DNA of 64,000 nt, taken from assembly GCA_963814865.1 (NCBI GenBank), contig CAWFEN010000009.1, forward strand, positions 167,041 to 231,040. Direction: 5' to 3'. The notes under the pieces were generated by a model. It had not been told where the DNA came from and ran no database searches. It saw only the letters and a program-made list of their open reading frames with translations. This document shows, piece after piece, positions 5,036-54,394 of the stretch. The stretch is from an uncultured Alphaproteobacteria bacterium (lineage in GTDB: Bacteria; Pseudomonadota; Alphaproteobacteria; ATCC43930; CGMCC-115725). How positions within the stretch are numbered: the stretch's first letter is position 1; every line of letters starts with the position of its first letter. Made by a program: the position numbers and the translations under genes.

Positions 5036-5527
5036 GCGACGCCGCCGGCATAGAGTATCGATCCGTCGGCATTATAGGCGACGCTCGGCACAAACGCCCC
5101 CGCGATCGCCCGGTCTTCGTCCAGGTGCGGTCGCGCCGGCGTTGGGCGATGTTGCCAACGCCGTAATGATCGCTGCGGCGGCAAACCCGCAGTGCCTCAG
5201 AAAGCGACTGGCTTTTTGCGGACGAGCCGGCGAAATTCTATGCGAGACCCGACCGGAATAAATATGGTCCACTTTTTCGCAAGGCAATGTTCGATATCCC
5301 TCCGCCCGCACCGGATCGCCGATCCCGTCAGTGTTTCAATGCAATTTTTCGATTTTTTATCCTACGTTAGTTGATGAACTTAATCAAGTAGAAATCAAAC
5401 CGCTTCGACCCGGCGCAGGCCGGCGCCAATTTCTATCATGACAGCGGTTTTCGCCGGATCGGGCCGCAACAGCCGGGTTCTCGAGAGGGATGCCGGCCTG
5501 CTCACGATTGTGCATGCCGCGCGCTGC

Positions 5528-6703
5528 CTACCGCCGATCGACGCCGGCGAAATAGAGCTTCGGGTCGGCGGCGCGGATATGGGCTTCCGGGAGCCCCAGT
5601 TCGCGGCGGACGATATTGGTGCCCTGGACCAGCGCCACGCATTTGTAATAGGCGATGCGGCGCGACAGCCCCTCGCGGCCGAAGCCGCAATCGGTGGTGA
5701 CGACCAGCCGCTCGGGCGGGATGTATTCGAGCGCCTTCCTGATCAGCCCGGCGACGTATTCGGGCGGCTCGACGATCGTGTTGCAATGGTTGACGACGCC
5801 GATGCCGATCTTCTTGTCGGTCTTGTATTGAGCGAAGAGCGGCAAATCCTTGCCGTCGCTCGATGCGCATTCGAAGGTGATGACGTCGGCGTTGAGCTGT
5901 AACAGATGGGGCAGCGCGCGCTCGTAGCTCGGCACCTCCCAATAGACCCGCTGCTGGTTGGGGTTGCCCCAGCAGGTATGCGCCCAGATCTCGGCCTCGA
6001 CCCCGACGAGCTGGCGGTTGAACACCTCGGTCTGGAACTCAAGGTCCGCCTCGGTGCAGTCGGGCCGCGTCGTCAGCCCGTGATGGCGCGGCTCCTCGAC
6101 CTGGATCAAGGGGCAGCCGGCGGCAGCCAATTCGCGCAGCTCGGCATTCATGATGTCGCAGAGCTCGAGCACCATCGCCTTGTCGTCGGGATAATGTTGG
6201 TTCCACAGCATGCTCGCCAGGGCGGGTGCACAGATCGCGCCGAACTTGACCGGGCGGTCGCTGAGGCGCTGGGCGATCTGCCACAACGCGGCATATTCGA
6301 GCGGCCCACGGGTCAGCTTTTCGGTGACGATCGCCGGCTGGTAGGCTTCCTGCACCTCCCACAGGATGTGGCCGGGCTGAAGCCCGTGCCGGCCCATCCA
6401 GCCTTGCGACGTATCGCGGTGGCCGTGGATGCCGCCCAATCGCTCGATCGGGTAGAAGAACCACGACTTGCCGCCGACCGCGAGATCGAAGCGGCTGTCG
6501 CCGTCGGTGACGATGTCGAGACCCGCCGCCTCCTGCGCATTGATCACCGCGGCGACGGCGTCGAGGTATTGCTCGCGAAACAGCGAGTCGCCGAGCGCAG
6601 CTTTGAACGACCGGCCCTGAAGGCTCGCATCGAACCACAATGGGCGCGGATAAGACCCGGTGATTGCCGTCGGCAGCACCAGGTCGCGGGTGGCTGTCAG
6701 CAT
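5528..6703 (-). CDS. cobalamin-independent methionine synthase II (MetE C-terminal-like) family protein
   Basis: LPTAITGSYPRPLWF.., AGLDIVTDGDSRFD, WAHTCWGN and VVTTDCGFG motifs; 391 aa. Confidence 0.7.
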   Translation of the reverse strand: MLTATRDLVLPTAITGSYPRPLWFDASLQGRSFKAALGDSLFREQYLDAVAAVINAQEAAGLDIVTDGDSRFDLAVGGKSWFFYPIERLGGIHGHRDTSQGWMGRHGLQPGHILWEVQEAYQPAIVTEKLTRGPLEYAALWQIAQRLSDRPVKFGAICAPALASMLWNQHYPDDKAMVLELCDIMNAELRELAAAGCPLIQVEEPRHHGLTTRPDCTEADLEFQTEVFNRQLVGVEAEIWAHTCWGNPNQQRVYWEVPSYERALPHLLQLNADVITFECASSDGKDLPLFAQYKTDKKIGIGVVNHCNTIVEPPEYVAGLIRKALEYIPPERLVVTTDCGFGREGLSRRIAYYKCVALVQGTNIVRRELGLPEAHIRAADPKLYFAGVDRR

Positions 6704-46212: not shown

Positions 46213-47313
46213 TCACCCGACGCCGAATCGCGCGATCGACTCCTCGTTGAATTTAAGGCCTAGGCCGGGGGCGGCCGGCATCGCCAGCAGGCCGTTCTGC
46301 GGGGCCGGGACTTCCTCCCACAAATGGAACAGGCGCGGCATGTATTCGACGGTCAGGCCGTTCGGGACCGCGCCGACCAGATGCAGGTGGATCTCAGGGA
46401 CGCCGTGGCTGACCACCGGCAGGTTGAAGGCCTCGGCCATGCCGGCGATCTTGAGCCACGGTGTCACGCCGCCGGAGCGCACCTGGTCGATCATCACGAT
46501 ATCGACCGAGCGGGCTTCGAGCATGTGGCGGAACGGCACGACGCCGTAAAGGTATTCGCCGCCGGCGACCGGTGTCGCCAAGGCTGCGCTGACCCGCGCG
46601 AGCCCGGCGTAATCGTCGTGCGTCGTCACGTCCTCGAGCCAGTAGAGGCCGACCCCGGCATCCTCGACCCGGCGGCCGATGTCGATCGCCTGCTCCGGCC
46701 GCCAGCGCTGGTTGATGTCGCACATCAGATCCATGTCGGGACCGACCGCCCGGCGGATCAGCCGGGCCTGCTCGACCTCGCGCGCCGGTGAGGTGACGCC
46801 CGGCAGGCCGAGCTGCATCTTGGCTTGGCGATGGCCTTTCGCGCGCAGCCTCTCGGCCGCGGTGACCGCCTCGTCGAGCTTCAAGCCGCGGCGCAACGCC
46901 CCGCTCGCATAGGTCGCGATATGGTCGCGCCCGCCGCCGAGCAGCTTCCATAACGGCAGGCCGAGCGCCTTGCCCTTGATGTCCCACAGCGCGACATCGA
47001 TCGCCGACAATGCCATCAGGAAGATCCCGGCCGGCCCGGCCGAGAGCGCCGCCGCGCGCAATTTGGCGGCGACCGCCTCGACCCGCATCGGGTCTTCGCC
47101 GATCGCCAGCATGCCCAATTCGTCGACGGCGTGGCGCAGGGTGCGGGTCAGCGCGCCGCCGAAATAGGTGACGCCGATGCCCTCGACCCCGTCATCGGTG
47201 CCGAGCCGCAGCCAGACGATCGGGTTCTTCGCGTTCGGGTTCTCCGAAAACCCGGCGAGCGGCTCGTCGTTCGGCAGGGCGACGATGCCGGTCTCGACCT
47301 TCGAGATTTTCAT
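46213..47313 (-). CDS. mandelate racemase/muconate lactonizing enzyme (enolase superfamily) protein, paralog 1
   Basis: MKISKVETGIVALPNDEPL.., LMCDINQRW, WLEDV and GGEYLYG metal-ligand region; 366 aa. The ATG overlaps the paralog 2 stop (ATGA). Confidence 0.85.
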   Translation of the reverse strand: MKISKVETGIVALPNDEPLAGFSENPNAKNPIVWLRLGTDDGVEGIGVTYFGGALTRTLRHAVDELGMLAIGEDPMRVEAVAAKLRAAALSAGPAGIFLMALSAIDVALWDIKGKALGLPLWKLLGGGRDHIATYASGALRRGLKLDEAVTAAERLRAKGHRQAKMQLGLPGVTSPAREVEQARLIRRAVGPDMDLMCDINQRWRPEQAIDIGRRVEDAGVGLYWLEDVTTHDDYAGLARVSAALATPVAGGEYLYGVVPFRHMLEARSVDIVMIDQVRSGGVTPWLKIAGMAEAFNLPVVSHGVPEIHLHLVGAVPNGLTVEYMPRLFHLWEEVPAPQNGLLAMPAAPGLGLKFNEESIARFGVG

Positions 47314-48419
47314 CGCGCCGCTCCGTAGCGCCGGATCGCATCGCGGTTGAAGGCGAGGCCGAGGCCGGGGCGGTCGGACAACGCCAGCTCGCCGCTTTTG
47401 GGGTCGAATTCGGCGACGCCGTCGAACAGCGTCAGCATCCAGCCCATGTATTCGACGGTCAGCCCGTTCGGCACCGCCGCGACGAGATGGGCGTGGATCT
47501 CCGGGATAACATGGCTGACCACCGGCAGGTTGAAGGCTTCGGCCATGCCGGCGATTTTCAACCACTGGGTGATGCCGCCGGCGCGGATCAGGTCGATCAT
47601 GACGTAGTCGACCGCGCGCGCCTCGATCATGTGACGGAACGGGACGATGCCGTAGACCAGCTCGCCGCCGCAGATCGGGGTCGACAGAGCTGCGTTGACG
47701 CGGGCGATGCCGGCGTAATCGTCGTGCGCGGTCACGTCTTCGAGCCAGAAGAGGCCGACCCCGGCATCCTCGACGCGCCGGCCGATGTCGATCGCCTGCT
47801 CGACCCGCCAGCGCTGGTTGATGTCGCACATCAGGCTGATGTCGGGGCCGATCGCCTCGCGCACCCGCCGCATGCGCTCGACCTCGGTGGCGGGCGAGGT
47901 GTCGCCCGGCAGGGCGAGCTGGGTCTTCATCTCGCGGAAGCCCTTGTCCCTGAGCCGGCCGGCCGCGGCCACGACCTCGTCGAGCGCCAGGTTGCGCCGC
48001 AAGGATCCGCTCGCATAGGTTGCAATCCGCTGGCGCGCCCCGCCGAGGAGTTTCCACAATGGCTGGTTCAGCGCCTTGCCGCGGATGTCCCACAAGGCGA
48101 TGTCGATCGCCGAGAGCGCCAGGGTGAACATGCCGGCGGGTCCCGAGCCGCCGGCCGCGGCGCGCAATTTGGCGATGATCGCTTCGAGGCGGTGCGGGTC
48201 GTCACCGATGATCAAGGCACCGAGATCGTCGATCGCGCGCTTCAGGCTCGCGGTCATAGCCCCGCCGTAAAAGGTCACGGCGATGCCCTCGATGCCGTCG
48301 TCGGTGCCGATTTCGACGATCACGATCGGCCGCGCCGCATTCGGGTTTTCCGGCGTGCCGGCGAGCGGATCGGCCTCGGGCAGCACCAGGATCTGCGAGC
48401 GGATGCTGGATATCTTCAT
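47310..48419 (-). CDS. mandelate racemase/muconate lactonizing enzyme family protein, paralog 2
   Basis: MKISSIRSQILVLPEADPL.., LMCDINQRW, WLEDV, GGELVYG; 369 aa. Confidence 0.85.
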   Translation of the reverse strand: MKISSIRSQILVLPEADPLAGTPENPNAARPIVIVEIGTDDGIEGIAVTFYGGAMTASLKRAIDDLGALIIGDDPHRLEAIIAKLRAAAGGSGPAGMFTLALSAIDIALWDIRGKALNQPLWKLLGGARQRIATYASGSLRRNLALDEVVAAAGRLRDKGFREMKTQLALPGDTSPATEVERMRRVREAIGPDISLMCDINQRWRVEQAIDIGRRVEDAGVGLFWLEDVTAHDDYAGIARVNAALSTPICGGELVYGIVPFRHMIEARAVDYVMIDLIRAGGITQWLKIAGMAEAFNLPVVSHVIPEIHAHLVAAVPNGLTVEYMGWMLTLFDGVAEFDPKSGELALSDRPGLGLAFNRDAIRRYGAAR

Positions 48420-48443
48420 CGCATCACCTCTGCCGTTCCGGCG

Positions 48444-49544
48444 TCACGCGACGCGGAACCGATTGATCGCGGCCTTGTCGAATTTGAGACCGAGACCGGG
48501 CGCGGCCGGCATCGCCAGCTCGCCGTTCTGCGGCAGCGGGACCGCTTCGAACAAATGCATCAGCCACGGCATGTATTCGACCGTCAGCCCGTTCGGGATC
48601 GCCCCGATCAGGTGGACATGGACCTCGGGGATCAGGTGGCTGACGACCGGCAGGTTGAAGGCCTCGGCCATGCCGGCGACCTTGAGCCATTGGGTGATCC
48701 CGCCGACCCGCACCAGGTCGATCATGACGATATCGACCGAGCGGGCTTCGAGCATGTGGCGGAACGGCACGATGCCCCAGACGTATTCGCCGCCGGCAAC
48801 GGGCGTCGACAATGCCGCGGTGATGCGGGCGAGGCCGGCAAAATCGTCGGCCGTGGTCACGTCTTCGAGCCAGAAGAGGCCAACTCCGGCATCCTCGACC
48901 CGCCTGCCGATGTCGATCGCCTGCTCGACCCGCCAGCGCTGGTTGATGTCGCACATCAGCTTGATATCGGGGCCGATCGCGTCCCTCACCCGGCGCATGC
49001 GCTCGACCTCCTTGGCGGGCGTGGTCTCGCCGGGCAATGCCATCTGCGTCTTCATCTCGCGCCAGCCCTTGTCCTTCAGGGTGGCCGCCGCCTGCACCAC
49101 CCGGTCGAGCGGGAGGCCGCGCATCAAGGCGCCGCTGGCATAGGTCGGGACCCGCTCGCGCGCGCCGCCGAGCAATTTCCACAACGGCAGGTTCAGCGCC
49201 TTGCCGCGCAGGTCCCACAAGGCCATGTCGATCGCCGAGTGAGCCAGGTTGAAGATGCCGCCCGGCCCGGCCGAGCCCGCCGCCGCGCGCAATTTGGCCG
49301 CGACCGCCTCGACCCGCACCGGGTCCTCGCCGATGGCGAGCGCCCCCAGCTCCTCGACCGCGCGCTTCAGGGTGCCGGTCAGCGCCCCGGCGAAATAGGT
49401 CACCCCGACCCCGACCGCGCCGTCATCGGTTTCGACCTCGAGGGTGACGATCGGGCGGGTGCCGTTCGGGTTTTCCGCCGCGCCGGCGAGCGGCTCGTCG
49501 GCCGGGAGCGCCACAATGTCGGCGCGGATGCCGGTGATCTTCAT
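48444..49544 (-). CDS. mandelate racemase/muconate lactonizing enzyme family protein, paralog 3
   Basis: MKITGIRADIVALPADEPL.., LMCDINQRW, WLEDV, GGEYVWG; 366 aa. Confidence 0.85.
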   Translation of the reverse strand: MKITGIRADIVALPADEPLAGAAENPNGTRPIVTLEVETDDGAVGVGVTYFAGALTGTLKRAVEELGALAIGEDPVRVEAVAAKLRAAAGSAGPGGIFNLAHSAIDMALWDLRGKALNLPLWKLLGGARERVPTYASGALMRGLPLDRVVQAAATLKDKGWREMKTQMALPGETTPAKEVERMRRVRDAIGPDIKLMCDINQRWRVEQAIDIGRRVEDAGVGLFWLEDVTTADDFAGLARITAALSTPVAGGEYVWGIVPFRHMLEARSVDIVMIDLVRVGGITQWLKVAGMAEAFNLPVVSHLIPEVHVHLIGAIPNGLTVEYMPWLMHLFEAVPLPQNGELAMPAAPGLGLKFDKAAINRFRVA

Positions 49545-49561
49545 CGGGCGGCCCTCCGGGT

Positions 49562-50347
49562 TCAGTTTTTGTAGCCGGGGTCGAGCCGATCGAGCATCCG
49601 CAGCAACGCCGGCCATTCGCGCTGGCCCTGGAGGCGCGGCATGTTGCCGGCAAACTGCGCAGCCTGGCGCTCGCAGGTGTCGGGCGACGGGACCACCATT
49701 TTGGCGCCGGAAGCGACGGCGGCCTGGATCTTCAGCTGCGCCTCGGCCGAGCGCTCGAAATGGTAGGTCAGCGAAAAGGCCTCGGCGACGTTGCGGCCGG
49801 TCGCCAACAGGCCGTGGTTGCGCAATACCAGCACCGGATGGCTGCCGATCGACTGCTGCAGCCGCTCGCGCTCGTCGAGGTCGAGCGAGACGCCCTCGTA
49901 ATCGTGATAGCCGAGCCGGTTGTAGAACCGCATCGCCCACTGGCTGAGCGGCAGCAGCCCCTCTTCCAAGGCGCCGACCGCGATGTCGGCCTCGGTATGG
50001 GTGTGGACCACGCACTCGACATCCGGCCGGCCGAGATAGATGGCACCGTGGATCACGACGCCGGCGTTGATCGGCTCGTATTCGGACGGCTCGATCAGGT
50101 GGCCGTCCGAAATATCGACCTTCAGCAGGTTCGAGGCGGTGATCTCGTCGAACATCAGCCCGGAGGGGTTGATCAGCATCTGGCCGGGGTGGCCCGGCAC
50201 CCGCGCCGAATTATGGGTCAGCACCAGATCGTCCCAGCCGAAATGCGCGATCAGCCGGTAGCAGGCGGCGAGATCGACCCGCACCCGCCATTCCTCCGCG
50301 CTGATATGCACCGGCCGGTGCGAGACATTGGCTTCAAGCGTGTCCAT
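49562..50347 (-). CDS. class II aldolase/adducin family protein
   Basis: MDTLEANVS..RVDLAACYRLIAHFGWDD.., VVHTHTEA.. and VLVLRNHGLLATG. 17 nt upstream of paralog 3. Confidence 0.8.
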   Translation of the reverse strand: MDTLEANVSHRPVHISAEEWRVRVDLAACYRLIAHFGWDDLVLTHNSARVPGHPGQMLINPSGLMFDEITASNLLKVDISDGHLIEPSEYEPINAGVVIHGAIYLGRPDVECVVHTHTEADIAVGALEEGLLPLSQWAMRFYNRLGYHDYEGVSLDLDERERLQQSIGSHPVLVLRNHGLLATGRNVAEAFSLTYHFERSAEAQLKIQAAVASGAKMVVPSPDTCERQAAQFAGNMPRLQGQREWPALLRMLDRLDPGYKN

Positions 50348-50422
50348 TTTCGATATTTCCTCGTTGCAACATTTTTGCGGATTTTCGTGGGTACGGCGCC
50401 ACCGCGGCGGTGGCACACTTTG

Positions 50423-51188
50423 TTACGCCGCCAGCCGCTCGGCGAATTGTTCGCGTTGCGACCATAGGGCCGGGCGAACCTGGTAGACCTCCAGCGCTTC
50501 GATCACGTCCCCGCCAACATTGCGCTCGCGATCGTTCAAGAATGCATACGCTTCGGCTCCCCCCCGACCGTCGCGCGTATCCGTGAGGACGAAGAGATAA
50601 CTTCCGATCGAACTTTTGTTCGGCGCGTTGATAGCCTGAACCAAGCGCTCGGGGGCCTCCGGTGACCGAGGTATCAAAAAATCGATCGCATGGTCATAAC
50701 CGGTGCGGCCAGCGAGCTTTACGCGGGGGCTGTAGCGGACCCGGTGCTCGTCTAGGAAATCTCGCACATCTTCCCAAAAGAACGTGGCAACTCTCGGCTG
50801 CGCCATAACAAACATATCGTTTAGAGCTAACATTGCCTGAACGAGAGAATGCACGCGCTGGCCTAAGTTACGGGGCGACGCTTCGACCAACAGACGGTCA
50901 CCTTCGAGTTGGATGCCGAATCCGAGGAGCGCCGTTTCAACGATATTTTTACGCTTTGGTGTGTTTAGCTCCAGTCCGCTCGTCCGCAAATCAGAGAGAA
51001 TATAGCCGTCGTCCGACAGGATGAATTTGCCGTTTTGGCGTACGGCGTAGATCTGAATGTGATCATTGTGCCGATCCAGGAAGGGGGTCGGTCAGTTCGC
51101 AAGCCTCCCCGACACTCTCCGCAGAAATTCCGCGGCGAAGCCATTCCACATAAGCGTCAACGAGCTGGCGACACTCTTCCTTGATCAT
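50423..51188 (-). pseudogene. DUF1828/DUF1829-like protein, frame broken in a C5 run (or sequencing error)
   Basis: MIKEECRQLVDAYVEWLRRGISAESVGEACELTDP | FLDRHNDHIQIYAVRQNGKFILSDDGYILSDLRTSGLELNTPKRKNIVETALLGFGIQ..YDHAIDFLIPRS... The switch is at the ggggg run 51084-51088. AT-richer than the surroundings. Confidence 0.6.
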
Positions 51189-51647
51189 ACAAACCCACCC
51201 TGAAAGGATGGTAGCCCGTCGAATATTGCAATAATTGCAGAAATCCTCAAAGGTGCGCCAGATGTCGATCGGGTTAGGAAACATGCTCGCGTCGAGCGGT
51301 TGCGCCCATTTGTCGTCGTAGCCTTCCCGATAAAGGTGAAGATGCGAACCCTCTAGCCGGGCTCCATCCGGGTTCGTGTGCGGAGCGCCATCAATGCACA
51401 AGCGCACGAGGACGATTATTTGCCGAGCCCGCGTTTGGTACCGATACTTCGAGAGGCGAATGGTGCCACGCCAGATGTCGAGCAGAAAACGTTCTTTCGG
51501 ATCAGCCCCGATCAGTTCGCGCGTATCATCGATACCTGGAGGCAGCGAAATTGGCCGCGATTCCGCGAAGCGCTTCATCATCGCGATTAGGGCGTCCACT
51601 TCCTCTTGAGCCAGCACGTCAGCTCTGCTGCCCCTTACAGAGTTCAA
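51185..51647 (-). CDS. conserved-looking hypothetical protein (family not recognised), possible 1-nt indel near its 3' end
   Basis: ..EEVDALIAMMKRFAES..RFLLDIWRGTIRLSKYRYQTRARQIIVLVRLCIDGAPHTNPDGARLEGSHLHLYREGYDDKWAQPL..TFEDFCNYCNI... In a shifted frame the end reads DGLPSFQGGFV* with the TGA overlapping the next ATG (ATGA). As printed, the frame instead runs into the next gene. The start is uncertain (TTG at 51647, or GTG/ATG downstream). Confidence 0.45.
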
Positions 51648-51897
51648 GTGCCTGTCCTCGGGTCGGGCACACCACGTGATGTTTCGAATTCCGCACCAGT
51701 CACCGTTCCGGCGGCAAATTTTAGCGCGGCCTCGATGTCTTGATCTGTCAGCTGTGGCCGGGCTTCGATGATTTGGTCAGGCGTATCGCCATCGGCAACG
51801 CTGCCGACGACCACGCTGACCGGAACGCGTGTTCCCTTGATGCACGGTTCGCCGTAACACACCTGGGATCGATAATGATCCTGTCGCGCCAGTTCAT
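51644..51897 (-). pseudogene. DUF433 (antitoxin-like HTH) protein with a 1-nt deletion (or sequencing error)
   Basis: ATG at 51897 gives MNWRDRIIIDP, then the family-typical CYGEPCIKGTRVPVSVVVGSVADGDTPDQIIEARPQLTDQDIEAALKFAA continues in another frame. The indel is at cctggg 51862-51867. Confidence 0.6.
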
Positions 51898-51909
51898 CTA
51901 GCAAAAGCC

Positions 51910-52302
51910 TCAAGCCGGGGTGAACATCGGCACCGGCGGGCCGCCGTCGCTGGGCTTGAAGACGAGCTTCACCGCCTGGCCGATCTTGATCCGGTCGAGG
52001 TCGCAATCGACGATGTTGGTCATCATCGTCGGCCCCTCGGCCAGGGTCACATAGGCGATCGCATACGGGACCGGGGCGCGGCGCATCACGCTGTAAGTGT
52101 AGATCACCCCCTTGCCCGACGCCTGTTGCAATGCGGTGTTGTCGCTGAAACAGAACGGACAGTGCGATCGTGGGTAGTAATAATTCTTCCCGCAGGCGTT
52201 GCATTTGCCGATCATCAATTTGCCTTGCGCCGCCGCATCCCAGAACGCCTTGGTTTCGAGATTGGGCACTGGGGCTTGGATCTTGCGGTCCTGGCTCTGC
52301 AT
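51910..52302 (-). CDS. Zn-ribbon/OB-fold (DUF35) protein, partner of a thiolase-like enzyme
   Basis: FWDAAAQGKLMIGKCNACGKNYYYPRSHCPFCFS.., ..IAYVTLAEGPTMMTNIV.., KIGQAVKLVF. Confidence 0.8.
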   Translation of the reverse strand: MQSQDRKIQAPVPNLETKAFWDAAAQGKLMIGKCNACGKNYYYPRSHCPFCFSDNTALQQASGKGVIYTYSVMRRAPVPYAIAYVTLAEGPTMMTNIVDCDLDRIKIGQAVKLVFKPSDGGPPVPMFTPA

Positions 52303-52307
52303 GACGG

Positions 52308-53481
52308 TCACTCCCGCTCCATGATCACGGTCGCCGCACCATGGCGGGTACCGAGCGAGCCGCCGGTGCCGTGCGCCAGGGCCAGATCGCAATTCGGCAC
52401 CTGGACCTTGGGGTGCGCCTCGCCGCGCAACTGCCGCACCGCCTCGACCACCTTGGTCAGCCCGCCGCGGTTGGACGGGTGGTTGTTGCACAGACCGCCG
52501 CCATCGGTGTTGAACGGCAGTTTGCCGGTGCCCGAGATCAAATTGCCGTCGGCGACGAAGCGGCCGCCCTGGCCTTTCTCGCAGAAGCCGAGATCCTCGA
52601 TCTGCATCACCACGGTGATCGTAAAGCTGTCGTAGATCGAGGCGTATTTGATGTCGGCGGGCTTGATCCCGGCTTCGGCAAAGGCCGCCGGCCCCGACCA
52701 CACGGCACCCGAATAGGTCAGGTCGATCTGCCCGCCCATCTGGTGCTTGGGCGCCTCGCCGGCGCCGATGATCCTGACCAACGGCCGCTTCAGGCTTCGC
52801 GCCACCTCGGGGCTGGCGACGATGATGGCGCCGCCGCCGTCGCTGATCACGCAGCAATCGAGCCGGTGCAGCGGGTCGGCGATCATCGGCGAATTGACCA
52901 CGTCTTCGACCGTGACCACGTCGCGCAGCATCGCATGCGGGTTGTATTGCGCATGGTGCGAGGCCGCGACCTTGACCCAGGCGAGCTGCTCGCTGGTGGT
53001 GCCGTACTGGTGCATGTGGCGCATCGCGCACATCGCGTACATGTTGGCGGTGGCCGGCGCGTAGGGGTTCTCGAACGCGGTCTCGGCCGACTGCGCCGTC
53101 GCGGCGCGCGGCGCGGTGCCGGTCGCCACCCCCTCGGTGCGCGGCCTGCCGGCCAAGGTGATCAGCGCAATCGAGCATTTGCCGAGGGCTATCGCCTCGG
53201 CAGCATGGCCGACCTGCAGCAGATAGGACGAGCCGCCGGTATCGGTCGAAATCCCAGTGGCGCAATTTGAGCCCGAGATAATCGATCATCGACAGCGCGC
53301 CGAGACCGGGCGTGTCGCCGGAGGCGCAGAAATAGCCGTCGATGTCGTTCTTGCTAAGCCCGGCATCGGCGAGCGCGCCCTGGGCGCATTCGGCATGCAG
53401 CTGAAACAGCGATTTGTCGTCGGCCTTGCGCGTCGGGTGCTCGAAGATCCCGACGATATTGGCCTTGCCCTTGATGCTCAT
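52308..53481 (-). pseudogene. thiolase-like (SCP-x / lipid-transfer type) protein with one frame disruption (or sequencing error)
   Basis: MSIKGKANIVGIFEHPTRKADDKS..SMIDYLGLKL is in one frame. GISTDTGGSSYLLQVGHAAEAIALGKCSIALITLAGR..NTDGGGLCNNHP..AHGTGGSLG.. is in another. The switch is near 53255-53262. Confidence 0.75.
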
Positions 53482-53624
53482 CGCCGGCTGTTCTCCCCTT
53501 CGAGGCAAATGTGTTGCTGCGGATGGGATACCGTTCGGCGCCCGCGGTCAATCCCGGATCGCTTGCAGCGAGGCGCCTCGTTGTGGGATAGGCTGCGACC
53601 TACCTGGTCAAGCTGACCAGACTA

Positions 53625-53799
53625 GTGTTGGACGCGATGCTGCGAGACGCCGCATCGACACGCACGTCTTTCTCTGGTGGAACGTCGATTGAGGAAAGCC
53701 ATCGGCGATCCGGCCAATGAGGTATATGTCAGCGCCGTCTCGGTCTGGGAAATCGGCATCAAACCCGCGATCGGGAAGCTCGGCCTGTCCGCACCTTAG
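53625..53799 (+). pseudogene. N-terminal remnant of a PIN-domain (VapC-like) toxin
   Basis: ..IDTHVFLWWNVD in one frame, then LRKAIGDPANEVYVSAVSVWEIGIKPAIGKLGLSAP* in the next. The C-terminal half of the PIN domain is absent. Confidence 0.55.
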
Positions 53800-54394
53800 A
53801 GTCGATTTCGCGCAAGAGTGGGCTTCGCACGACCGCGCGGTGGAACGAGGATGGCGGGCGTCCATAGGTTGCGCGGAAAGCATCATTGAACCGTCGCACG
53901 CTGCGAAAACCGGCGGCGAAGGCGATCTCGGACAACCCCAGCGCCGTCTCGTCGATCAGCCGCTTGGCGGTCTGCACCCGCCGGGTCGCGGCGACCTCGC
54001 CCGGCGCAGCGCCGGCATGGCGGAGAAACAGCCGCGACAGATGACGCGGGCCGATGCCCAGCCGCTCGGCCAGTTCCGCGACCGAGGCCTGATCGAGGAA
54101 GCCCTCCTCGATCAGCCGCATGCCGCGCGTGACCGTCGCCGCCGTGCCGTTCCAGGCCGGACTCCCCGGCGCCGCTTCCGGACGACAGCGCAGGCAGGGA
54201 CGAAAACCCGCCCGTTCGGCCGCGGCGGCCGTTCGAAAGAAGAAGACATTCTCGGAGCGCGCCGGCCGCACCGGACAGACCGGCCGGCAGTAGATGCGTG
54301 TTGTCCGCACGCCGGTAAAGAATCGGCCGTCGAATTCGGGATCGCGCGCCAGACGGGCGCGGTCGCAAGTATTCCAATCGAGTTCCGACGGCAT
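53759..54394 (-). CDS. AdaA-like regulator (Ada Zn-binding methylphosphotriester domain plus AraC-type HTH)
   Basis: DPEFDGRFFTGVRTTRIYCRPVCP..FRPCLRCRP (Cys4 Ada motif), then ..LAERLGIGPRHLSRLF.. and ..IAFAAGFRSVRRFNDAFR..; 211 aa from ATG 54394. Confidence 0.65.
   Translation of the reverse strand: MPSELDWNTCDRARLARDPEFDGRFFTGVRTTRIYCRPVCPVRPARSENVFFFRTAAAAERAGFRPCLRCRPEAAPGSPAWNGTAATVTRGMRLIEEGFLDQASVAELAERLGIGPRHLSRLFLRHAGAAPGEVAATRRVQTAKRLIDETALGLSEIAFAAGFRSVRRFNDAFRATYGRPPSSFHRAVVRSPLLREIDSKVRTGRASRSRV

Follow-up and report, generated by a model that had tools for sequence, protein, structure and literature searches.

A catalogued candidate anti-phage gene pair, PDC-M24, behind an orphan DUF433 gene at a variable toxin-antitoxin slot of an uncultured alphaproteobacterium

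The PDC entries of the PADLOC database comprise 145 untested candidates, whose genes were picked out inside BREX, DISARM and type I restriction operons (Payne, Hughes, Fineran & Jackson, bioRxiv 10.1101/2024.01.29.577857). Two further cases are of use for comparison with the locus reported here. In DS-6 (HipAD; DefensePredictor, Science 2026), a validated anti-phage system of toxin-antitoxin-like type, the toxin is a HipA-like kinase, and its non-toxic partner, a DUF3037-DUF1829 protein, is predicted to bind both the toxin and DNA (PMC13092281). TumE has been described as two helices on a seven-stranded sheet, a fold for which there was no neighbour in the PDB (Durairaj et al., Nature 2023, PMC10584680). 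Here we analyse a stretch of 64,000 nucleotides (the window) from an uncultured Alphaproteobacteria bacterium (assembly GCA_963814865.1, contig CAWFEN010000009.1, positions 167,041 to 231,040), which carries a three-gene module at 50423-51897. Genes 2 and 3 of this module, for the products A and B, are, judging by their profile matches, one more copy of the widespread, catalogued candidate anti-phage pair PDC-M24. We consider it likely that the locus consists of this pair together with gene 1 as the surviving DUF433 antitoxin half of an older pair at the same slot.

The assignment to PDC-M24 is carried by both proteins. Product A matches the PADLOC model PDLC04538 (PDC-M24A) with an E-value of 1.5e-48 over profile positions 3-137 of 146, and product B matches PDLC04539 (PDC-M24B) with an E-value of 5.2e-91 over positions 4-255 of 255. 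The two genes have the PDC-M24 layout, being adjacent on the same strand with A ahead of B and joined by an ATGA overlap once the frame of A follows its homologues. An earlier sequence-only reading of this DNA had not recognised the combination as a described system; the PADLOC query showed that genes 2 and 3 are already catalogued. The same reading had sensed a toxin-antitoxin or defence-type cassette, and rightly so.

According to the open reading frame listing and the three-frame translation, the DUF433 gene, the DUF6978 gene and the DUF1828+DUF1829 gene follow each other collinearly on the minus strand. Gene 1 (51644..51897) encodes a DUF433 protein of ~80 amino acids (PF04255, E 2.3e-22, profile positions 1-56 of 56). 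It begins with an ATG at 51897, opens with MNWRDRIIIDP and, after a frame change, reads on as VCYGEPCIKGTRVPV... to the TGA stop codon at 51644-51646. Gene 2 (51185..51617) encodes A, a DUF6978 protein of ~143 amino acids (PF22398, E 3.7e-43). Its start is most likely the GTG at 51617, which aligns with the methionine of 143-amino-acid homologues, with a TTG at 51647 as the alternative, and it stops at TGA 51185-51187 when the frame tracks the homologues. Gene 3 (50423..51188) runs from an ATG at 51188 to a stop at 50423 and encodes B, a protein of ~254 amino acids with DUF1828 (PF08861, E 2.5e-26) and DUF1829 (PF08862, E 1.8e-22) domains, which is 94% identical to the intact homologue P0121. 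A search of NCBIfam gave zero matches for all three proteins. The GC content of the module is 0.52-0.59, compared with 0.63-0.73 in both flanks. Thus, the three-gene observation is real and far beyond chance, and the earlier description of an AT-richer, same-strand insert of foreign composition with tightly coupled genes holds, as do its family calls DUF433 and DUF1828+DUF1829, both of which are borne out by Pfam.

The pair occurs far beyond this genome. Close homologues number 452 for A and 953 for B, and an exhaustive profile search grouped the A family into 1150 clusters (50% identity), which consist almost entirely of stand-alone proteins of ~145 amino acids. For B, identity stays at 50-78% across more than ten phyla, among them Alphaproteobacteria, Acidobacteriota, Planctomycetota, Nitrospirota, Bacillota, Actinomycetota and Chloroflexota (loci L042-L121). 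In a census of 80 loci from other species in more than ten phyla, collected through B, A was located directly upstream of B in 76. Within the genus a strong B match was present in only 2 of 37 genomes; the second of these, G032, carries a divergent pair elsewhere in the genome, and DUF433 is missing there. One copy lies between a DUF1156 methylase and a DUF499 gene, beside an MNT/HEPN pair, one follows an MmeI-type enzyme, and others are found next to HerA-like and SbcCD-like genes and transposases. Prophage Lj965 carries a further copy in its lysogeny module, flanked on one side by a gene for an ImmA-like protease and on the other by genes for superinfection exclusion and integrase, and another lies on the IncP-1 plasmid pRSB223; A and B both match PHROG families. 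The pair is, from its distribution and gene arrangement, a horizontally spread two-gene cassette in which A is predicted to be translationally coupled to B. The ratio of nonsynonymous to synonymous substitution rates (dN/dS) for B, 0.03-0.04, indicates unusually strong conservation for a mobile accessory gene.

The origin of gene 1 becomes clearer when the site itself is followed through the genus. The module is flanked upstream by a ChsH2-type OB-fold gene (51910..52302, minus strand), which is kept in 39 of the 41 genus genomes searched, the own genome included, and downstream by a class II aldolase gene (49562..50416, minus strand). We surveyed the interval between these two genes in 19 genomes of the genus (loci L132-L150). 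It was empty in six of them, with the aldolase gene 24-278 nucleotides past the OB-fold gene, and G006 (L138) carries a complete DUF433-DUF5615 pair in the same place (DUF5615, E 1.9e-18). Other cargo comprised DUF433 with a truncated DUF5615 and BrnT/BrnA, DUF433 remnants, BrnT/BrnA alone, a lipocalin-like gene, a GNAT acetyltransferase, an AHSA1-like gene and a methyltransferase; BrnT/BrnA is also found downstream of the A-B pair in the relative L002. The PDC-M24 pair was present at this position in none of the 19 surveyed genomes, and the DUF433 genes found there are 65-75% identical to the copy in the window. The gap at 50416-51910 is therefore a genus-wide variable slot for small toxin-antitoxin modules.

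Gene 1 is the only DUF433 gene in its genome (G000), and no PIN or DUF5615 gene follows it in the window or was found anywhere in the assembly, which bears out the earlier remark that a PIN partner is missing. We also considered that the orphan is retained against paralogous DUF5615 toxins; this was rejected, since the genome has no DUF5615. Because G006 has DUF433 together with DUF5615 at the same slot, gene 1 most likely is the leftover, resident antitoxin half of such a pair, with PDC-M24 in the place of the toxin. The ancestor would have carried DUF433-DUF5615 in the slot, and the incoming PDC-M24 pair would then have replaced the PIN-like toxin gene.

As printed, none of the three genes has an intact reading frame. 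We aligned the window with the syntenic relatives L002, L017, L018, L019 and L020 and with L011, for which the A-B region aligns, and found one frame-breaking indel of a single nucleotide in every gene. Gene 1 has lost a base at ~51864 (GATCCCA-GG), gene 2 contains a surplus base at ~51218-51222 (CGACGGG compared with CAG-GGG in the relatives), and gene 3 has one at ~51090 (GACCGAC compared with GA-CGAC). The indel sites proposed from the sequence, 51084-51088, ~51220 and 51862-51867, agree with these aligned positions within a few bases, and the ATGA overlap of genes 2 and 3 predicted upon repair was indeed read at the junctions of the intact L002, L011 and L017 loci. With the indel in place, gene 2 reads in frame through the ~40 first codons of gene 3, giving an open reading frame of 194 amino acids (51063-51647). 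The C-terminus of gene 2 past the shift (DGLPSFQGGFV) fits the invariant residues of the homologues. This conserved C-terminus and the ATGA in the relatives rule out a natural fusion of genes 2 and 3; the 194-amino-acid frame is an artefact of the indel.

Such breaks are frequent in this assembly. A codon-usage Viterbi decoder, which counted frame switches on the same strand without a stop codon, found 526 frameshift-like switches in this genome. This amounts to a density of 1.36 per 10 kb of coding sequence, whereas 400 kb from a finished member of the same order gave 0.16 per 10 kb. With respect to such breaks the assembly is thus about eight-fold richer than its finished relative. The window holds 11 such switches (at ~2389, 18173, 20268, 22186, 26652, 35343, 35975, 44479, 53245, 58763 and 62018). 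One of the genes concerned is the thiolase gene 1.3 kb upstream of the module, which is split over two frames by a TT>TTT change at 53251 relative to two relatives. The module has neither nonsense codons nor deletions, and against the relatives dN/dS is 0.03-0.04 for B, 0.12-0.17 for A and 0.13-0.16 for DUF433. Intact homologous cassettes exist elsewhere, namely in L017, L019 and L011. In the JGI metagenomes, a degenerate pattern that covered the indel of gene 3 picked up no near-identical copy.

Three other breaks were seen in the course of these comparisons. At ~53482-53800 on the plus strand of the window lies the remnant of a VapC/PIN toxin gene (..IDTHVFLWW.. / ..VSAVSVWEIGIK..GKL..), spread over two frames and abutting a convergent Ada/AraC-like gene; no antitoxin gene is visible beside it. 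Among the JGI metagenome contigs of one study, L018 and L020 are identical to L017 and L019 except for a TTT>TT change in the DUF6978 gene, so that gene A is polymorphically inactivated within one population. In L011, a long-read contig from ENA, a CC>CCC change at ~4790 joins the thiolase and OB-fold genes into a called 'fusion' of 523 amino acids, which is probably due to an indel in the assembly and not to a true gene fusion.

The AlphaFold2 model of A is confident (pLDDT 87.5, pTM 0.83) and shows two helices and seven strands. Foldseek found no PDB neighbour for it (best probability 0.25), and against BFVD the sole match was one uncharacterised siphovirus protein. A sequence search for solved structures returned none for A or B. 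Longer members of the A family in a library of 1.84 billion proteins contain no second Pfam domain save a weak match to the membrane protein family 8xMP, which is uninformative on function. The invariant residues of A include His90, His102 and His104 and several Arg, Glu and Asp, a pattern suggestive of enzymatic activity or of nucleic-acid binding. We also considered whether A is a homologue of TumE (PF20126): genes of that family were fetched from the class, aligned and compared with the A alignment by hhalign. The probability was 0.9% with shallow alignments, and 0 of 32 A members hit PF20126, all matching DUF6978 only; TumE homology was rejected, short of a very remote relationship.

The model of B (pLDDT 81) has weak stretches in the C-terminal domain. 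Its N-terminal half gave weak Foldseek matches to YbjN and to SicP/type III secretion chaperones, and its C-terminal half matched MspJI (E 0.016, probability 0.77) and, more weakly, AspBHI, Can2 and Card1, in a domain that is poorly modelled in parts. The invariant residues of B are E139, D140, K157, D165, H166, E180, R181 and Q184, without a canonical (D/E)xK arrangement, though they may form a variant active site. From these models a toxin-antitoxin-like abortive-infection module can be proposed, in which A would be the enzymatic effector, as its invariant His, Arg, Glu and Asp may indicate, the YbjN- or secretion-chaperone-like N-terminal domain of B would hold A, and the restriction-endonuclease-like C-terminal domain of B would bind or cut DNA. 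We favour this division of labour, with A as effector and B as binding and regulating partner, though only tentatively, giving it somewhat less than an even chance.

Several observations weigh against parts of this picture, and they are best set beside the explanations that they would serve. DUF433 evolves under purifying selection without a toxin (dN/dS 0.13-0.16 against L017 and L011, neither of which has a DUF5615 gene after DUF433), unlike a pure relic. The order OB-fold gene, DUF433, A, B and aldolase gene is intact in L017 and L019, and the first four also follow each other in L011, in which the DUF433 gene (~5353-5580) had been missed by the gene caller; the L011 and L017-L020 lineages differ from the window by 23-26% of the DNA across the module. 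DUF433, A and B thus recur in this order at the same site in the window, in L011 and in L017-L020, the distance from the DUF433 stop to the A start is 17-27 nucleotides, and G000 has no DUF5615 that an antitoxin could neutralise. All this would suit a genuine three-component system, at least in this clade, with DUF433 as an integral leader, regulator or antitoxin of A and B. The census speaks against it: 77 of the 80 A-B loci have no DUF433 within 6 kb, the three exceptions carry it downstream of B, two of them with a DUF5615 match after it, in L002, the closest locus as judged by protein B (94%), A-B follows the OB-fold gene immediately and DUF433 is missing, and a DUF433 of the same genus sits with DUF5615 in the same slot (G006). 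A three-component system is in our view distinctly improbable. Of the three-gene unit proposed by the sequence-only reading, the recurrence of the order at one site in three lineages stands, whereas DUF433 as a general leader gene of the module does not. What the low dN/dS does indicate is that the orphan gene is kept by selection in the DUF433-A-B order, and a bolder reading would have DUF433 outlive the replacement of its toxin by PDC-M24 and become co-opted as regulator or third component of a hybrid module, with preferential breakage of DUF6978 marking a toxin of new fold. The breakage is seen in the census, in which 16 of 77 assessable loci have A split, truncated or missing altogether, and B, though 1.8 times longer, is broken in 2 of 79 (binomial P 2e-4), an asymmetry that is inflated by the collection of the loci through B and is a lead only; the bolder reading as a whole is a long shot. 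The frame breaks can be read in two ways as well. Three indels within 1.5 kb, one per gene, are more than the window rate of one in about 4-6 kb would give (Poisson P ~0.005), which fits decay as well as error, and the change in gene 2 is more complex than a simple homopolymer slip. In addition, A is often broken elsewhere, including in the Illumina assemblies L057, L060 and L080, it is polymorphic between L018/L020 and L017/L019, and the PIN remnant at ~53482-53800 represents decay of a toxin-antitoxin gene in the same region. The cassette could accordingly be a recently inactivated relic in which all three indels are real, which we hold to be rather unlikely. Owing to the eight-fold genome-wide excess of switches, the homopolymer indel in the conserved thiolase gene next door, the lack of stop codons and deletions and the low dN/dS, the indels are, by a modest preponderance, better taken as consensus errors of an indel-prone assembly than as real inactivation.

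The role of the pair and of its two proteins calls for similar weighing. A literature search returned no paper that tests PDC-M24 or assigns a function to DUF6978, and the assignment to defence is one of guilt by association. PDC-M24 may instead serve mobile DNA as a module for addiction or stabilisation, or be selfish and of no benefit to the host, as its occurrence on plasmids, in prophages and in variable slots beside classical toxin-antitoxin pairs could suggest; its conservation across phyla implies frequent transfer. Its repeated appearance within operons of restriction-type or defence genes, and beside superinfection-exclusion genes in the lysogeny modules of prophages, argues for defence, and such embedding is the criterion by which PADLOC lists its candidates, so that we judge a purely selfish or addictive role improbable. 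As for the proteins, the fold matches are all weak (E of at least 5e-3), B shows no evident D...(D/E)xK motif of canonical form, and it is the more conserved of the two (dN/dS 0.03-0.04 compared with 0.12-0.17) while having the nuclease-like fold. The roles could thus be reversed, with B as a PD-(D/E)xK-type nuclease effector restrained by its own DUF1828 domain and A as a sensor, activator or antitoxin-like partner. The best PDB matches of the B C-terminal half, the nuclease domains of MspJI, AspBHI, Can2 and Card1, point in this direction, and so does the tolerated loss of A, as would be expected if B needs activation. These matches have Foldseek probabilities of 0.4-0.8 and E-values of at least 0.016, no clear (D/E)xK stands among the invariant residues of B, the DUF1829 protein of DS-6, the one system put to the test, is not the toxin but its partner, and A has the enzyme-like set of invariant His, Arg and Glu. 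Taken together, we find the reversed assignment doubtful, though it deserves more weight than a purely selfish role.

Around the module, a perfect 17-nucleotide palindrome, GCCACCGCGGCGGTGGC, is located at 50398..50414, directly 3' of the gene 3 stop and ahead of the aldolase gene. It may form a transcript-end hairpin; there is no T-run after it on the minus strand. Besides this palindrome a terminator scan of the module gave nothing convincing, and a promoter scan of the module gave no candidate above shuffled expectation. Beyond the aldolase gene, three tandem paralogues of the enolase superfamily (mandelate racemase-like) occupy 46213-49574 on the minus strand.

The locus is of interest in several respects. 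The history of the slot is clear, with different toxin-antitoxin modules found at one intergenic site across the genus, and an orphan antitoxin gene appears to have been kept under selection ahead of a newly arrived pair. If co-option did take place, defence cassettes could be built by an effector swap behind a resident antitoxin and its promoter. PDC-M24 ranks among the more widespread of the untested candidates, with A alone forming at least 1150 clusters at 50% identity, and A has a confident predicted fold without a structural neighbour of known function, which makes an experiment worthwhile. Finally, frame breaks in an indel-prone assembly such as this one should not be turned into pseudogene calls without the reads.

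How far, then, does the locus resemble described systems? With PDC-M24 it shares matches to both models over nearly their full length, the order of A and then B, the common strand and the ATGA coupling. It differs in that this copy, placed after an orphan DUF433 in a slot for toxin-antitoxin cargo, is not part of an operon for restriction, BREX or DISARM, and in that all its frames are broken as printed; the candidate itself is untested, so that membership says nothing on function. To TumE-TumA (DUF6516/PF20126) the likeness lies in the same number of structural elements in the A model and in a conserved H-x-H past a glycine-rich loop in both proteins; however, A has ~145 amino acids and TumE ~95, and the partner proteins are unrelated. 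The PD-(D/E)xK domains of MspJI, AspBHI, Can2 and Card1 are the best, though weak, PDB matches to the DUF1829 domain of B (E 0.016-0.14, TM-score 0.2-0.34), and B has neither sequence similarity to them nor an evident motif. HipAD/DS-6 shares the DUF1829 domain with B; the partner here, in contrast, is a DUF6978 protein without a kinase domain, and the N-terminus of B is DUF1828, not DUF3037. The putative type II pairs DUF433-DUF5615, whose DUF5615 member is PIN-like and of Mut7-C type, are represented by gene 1 as a full-length DUF433 and by the pair of G006 at the identical slot; in the window DUF5615 is missing, and the position of the toxin is occupied by the PDC-M24 pair.

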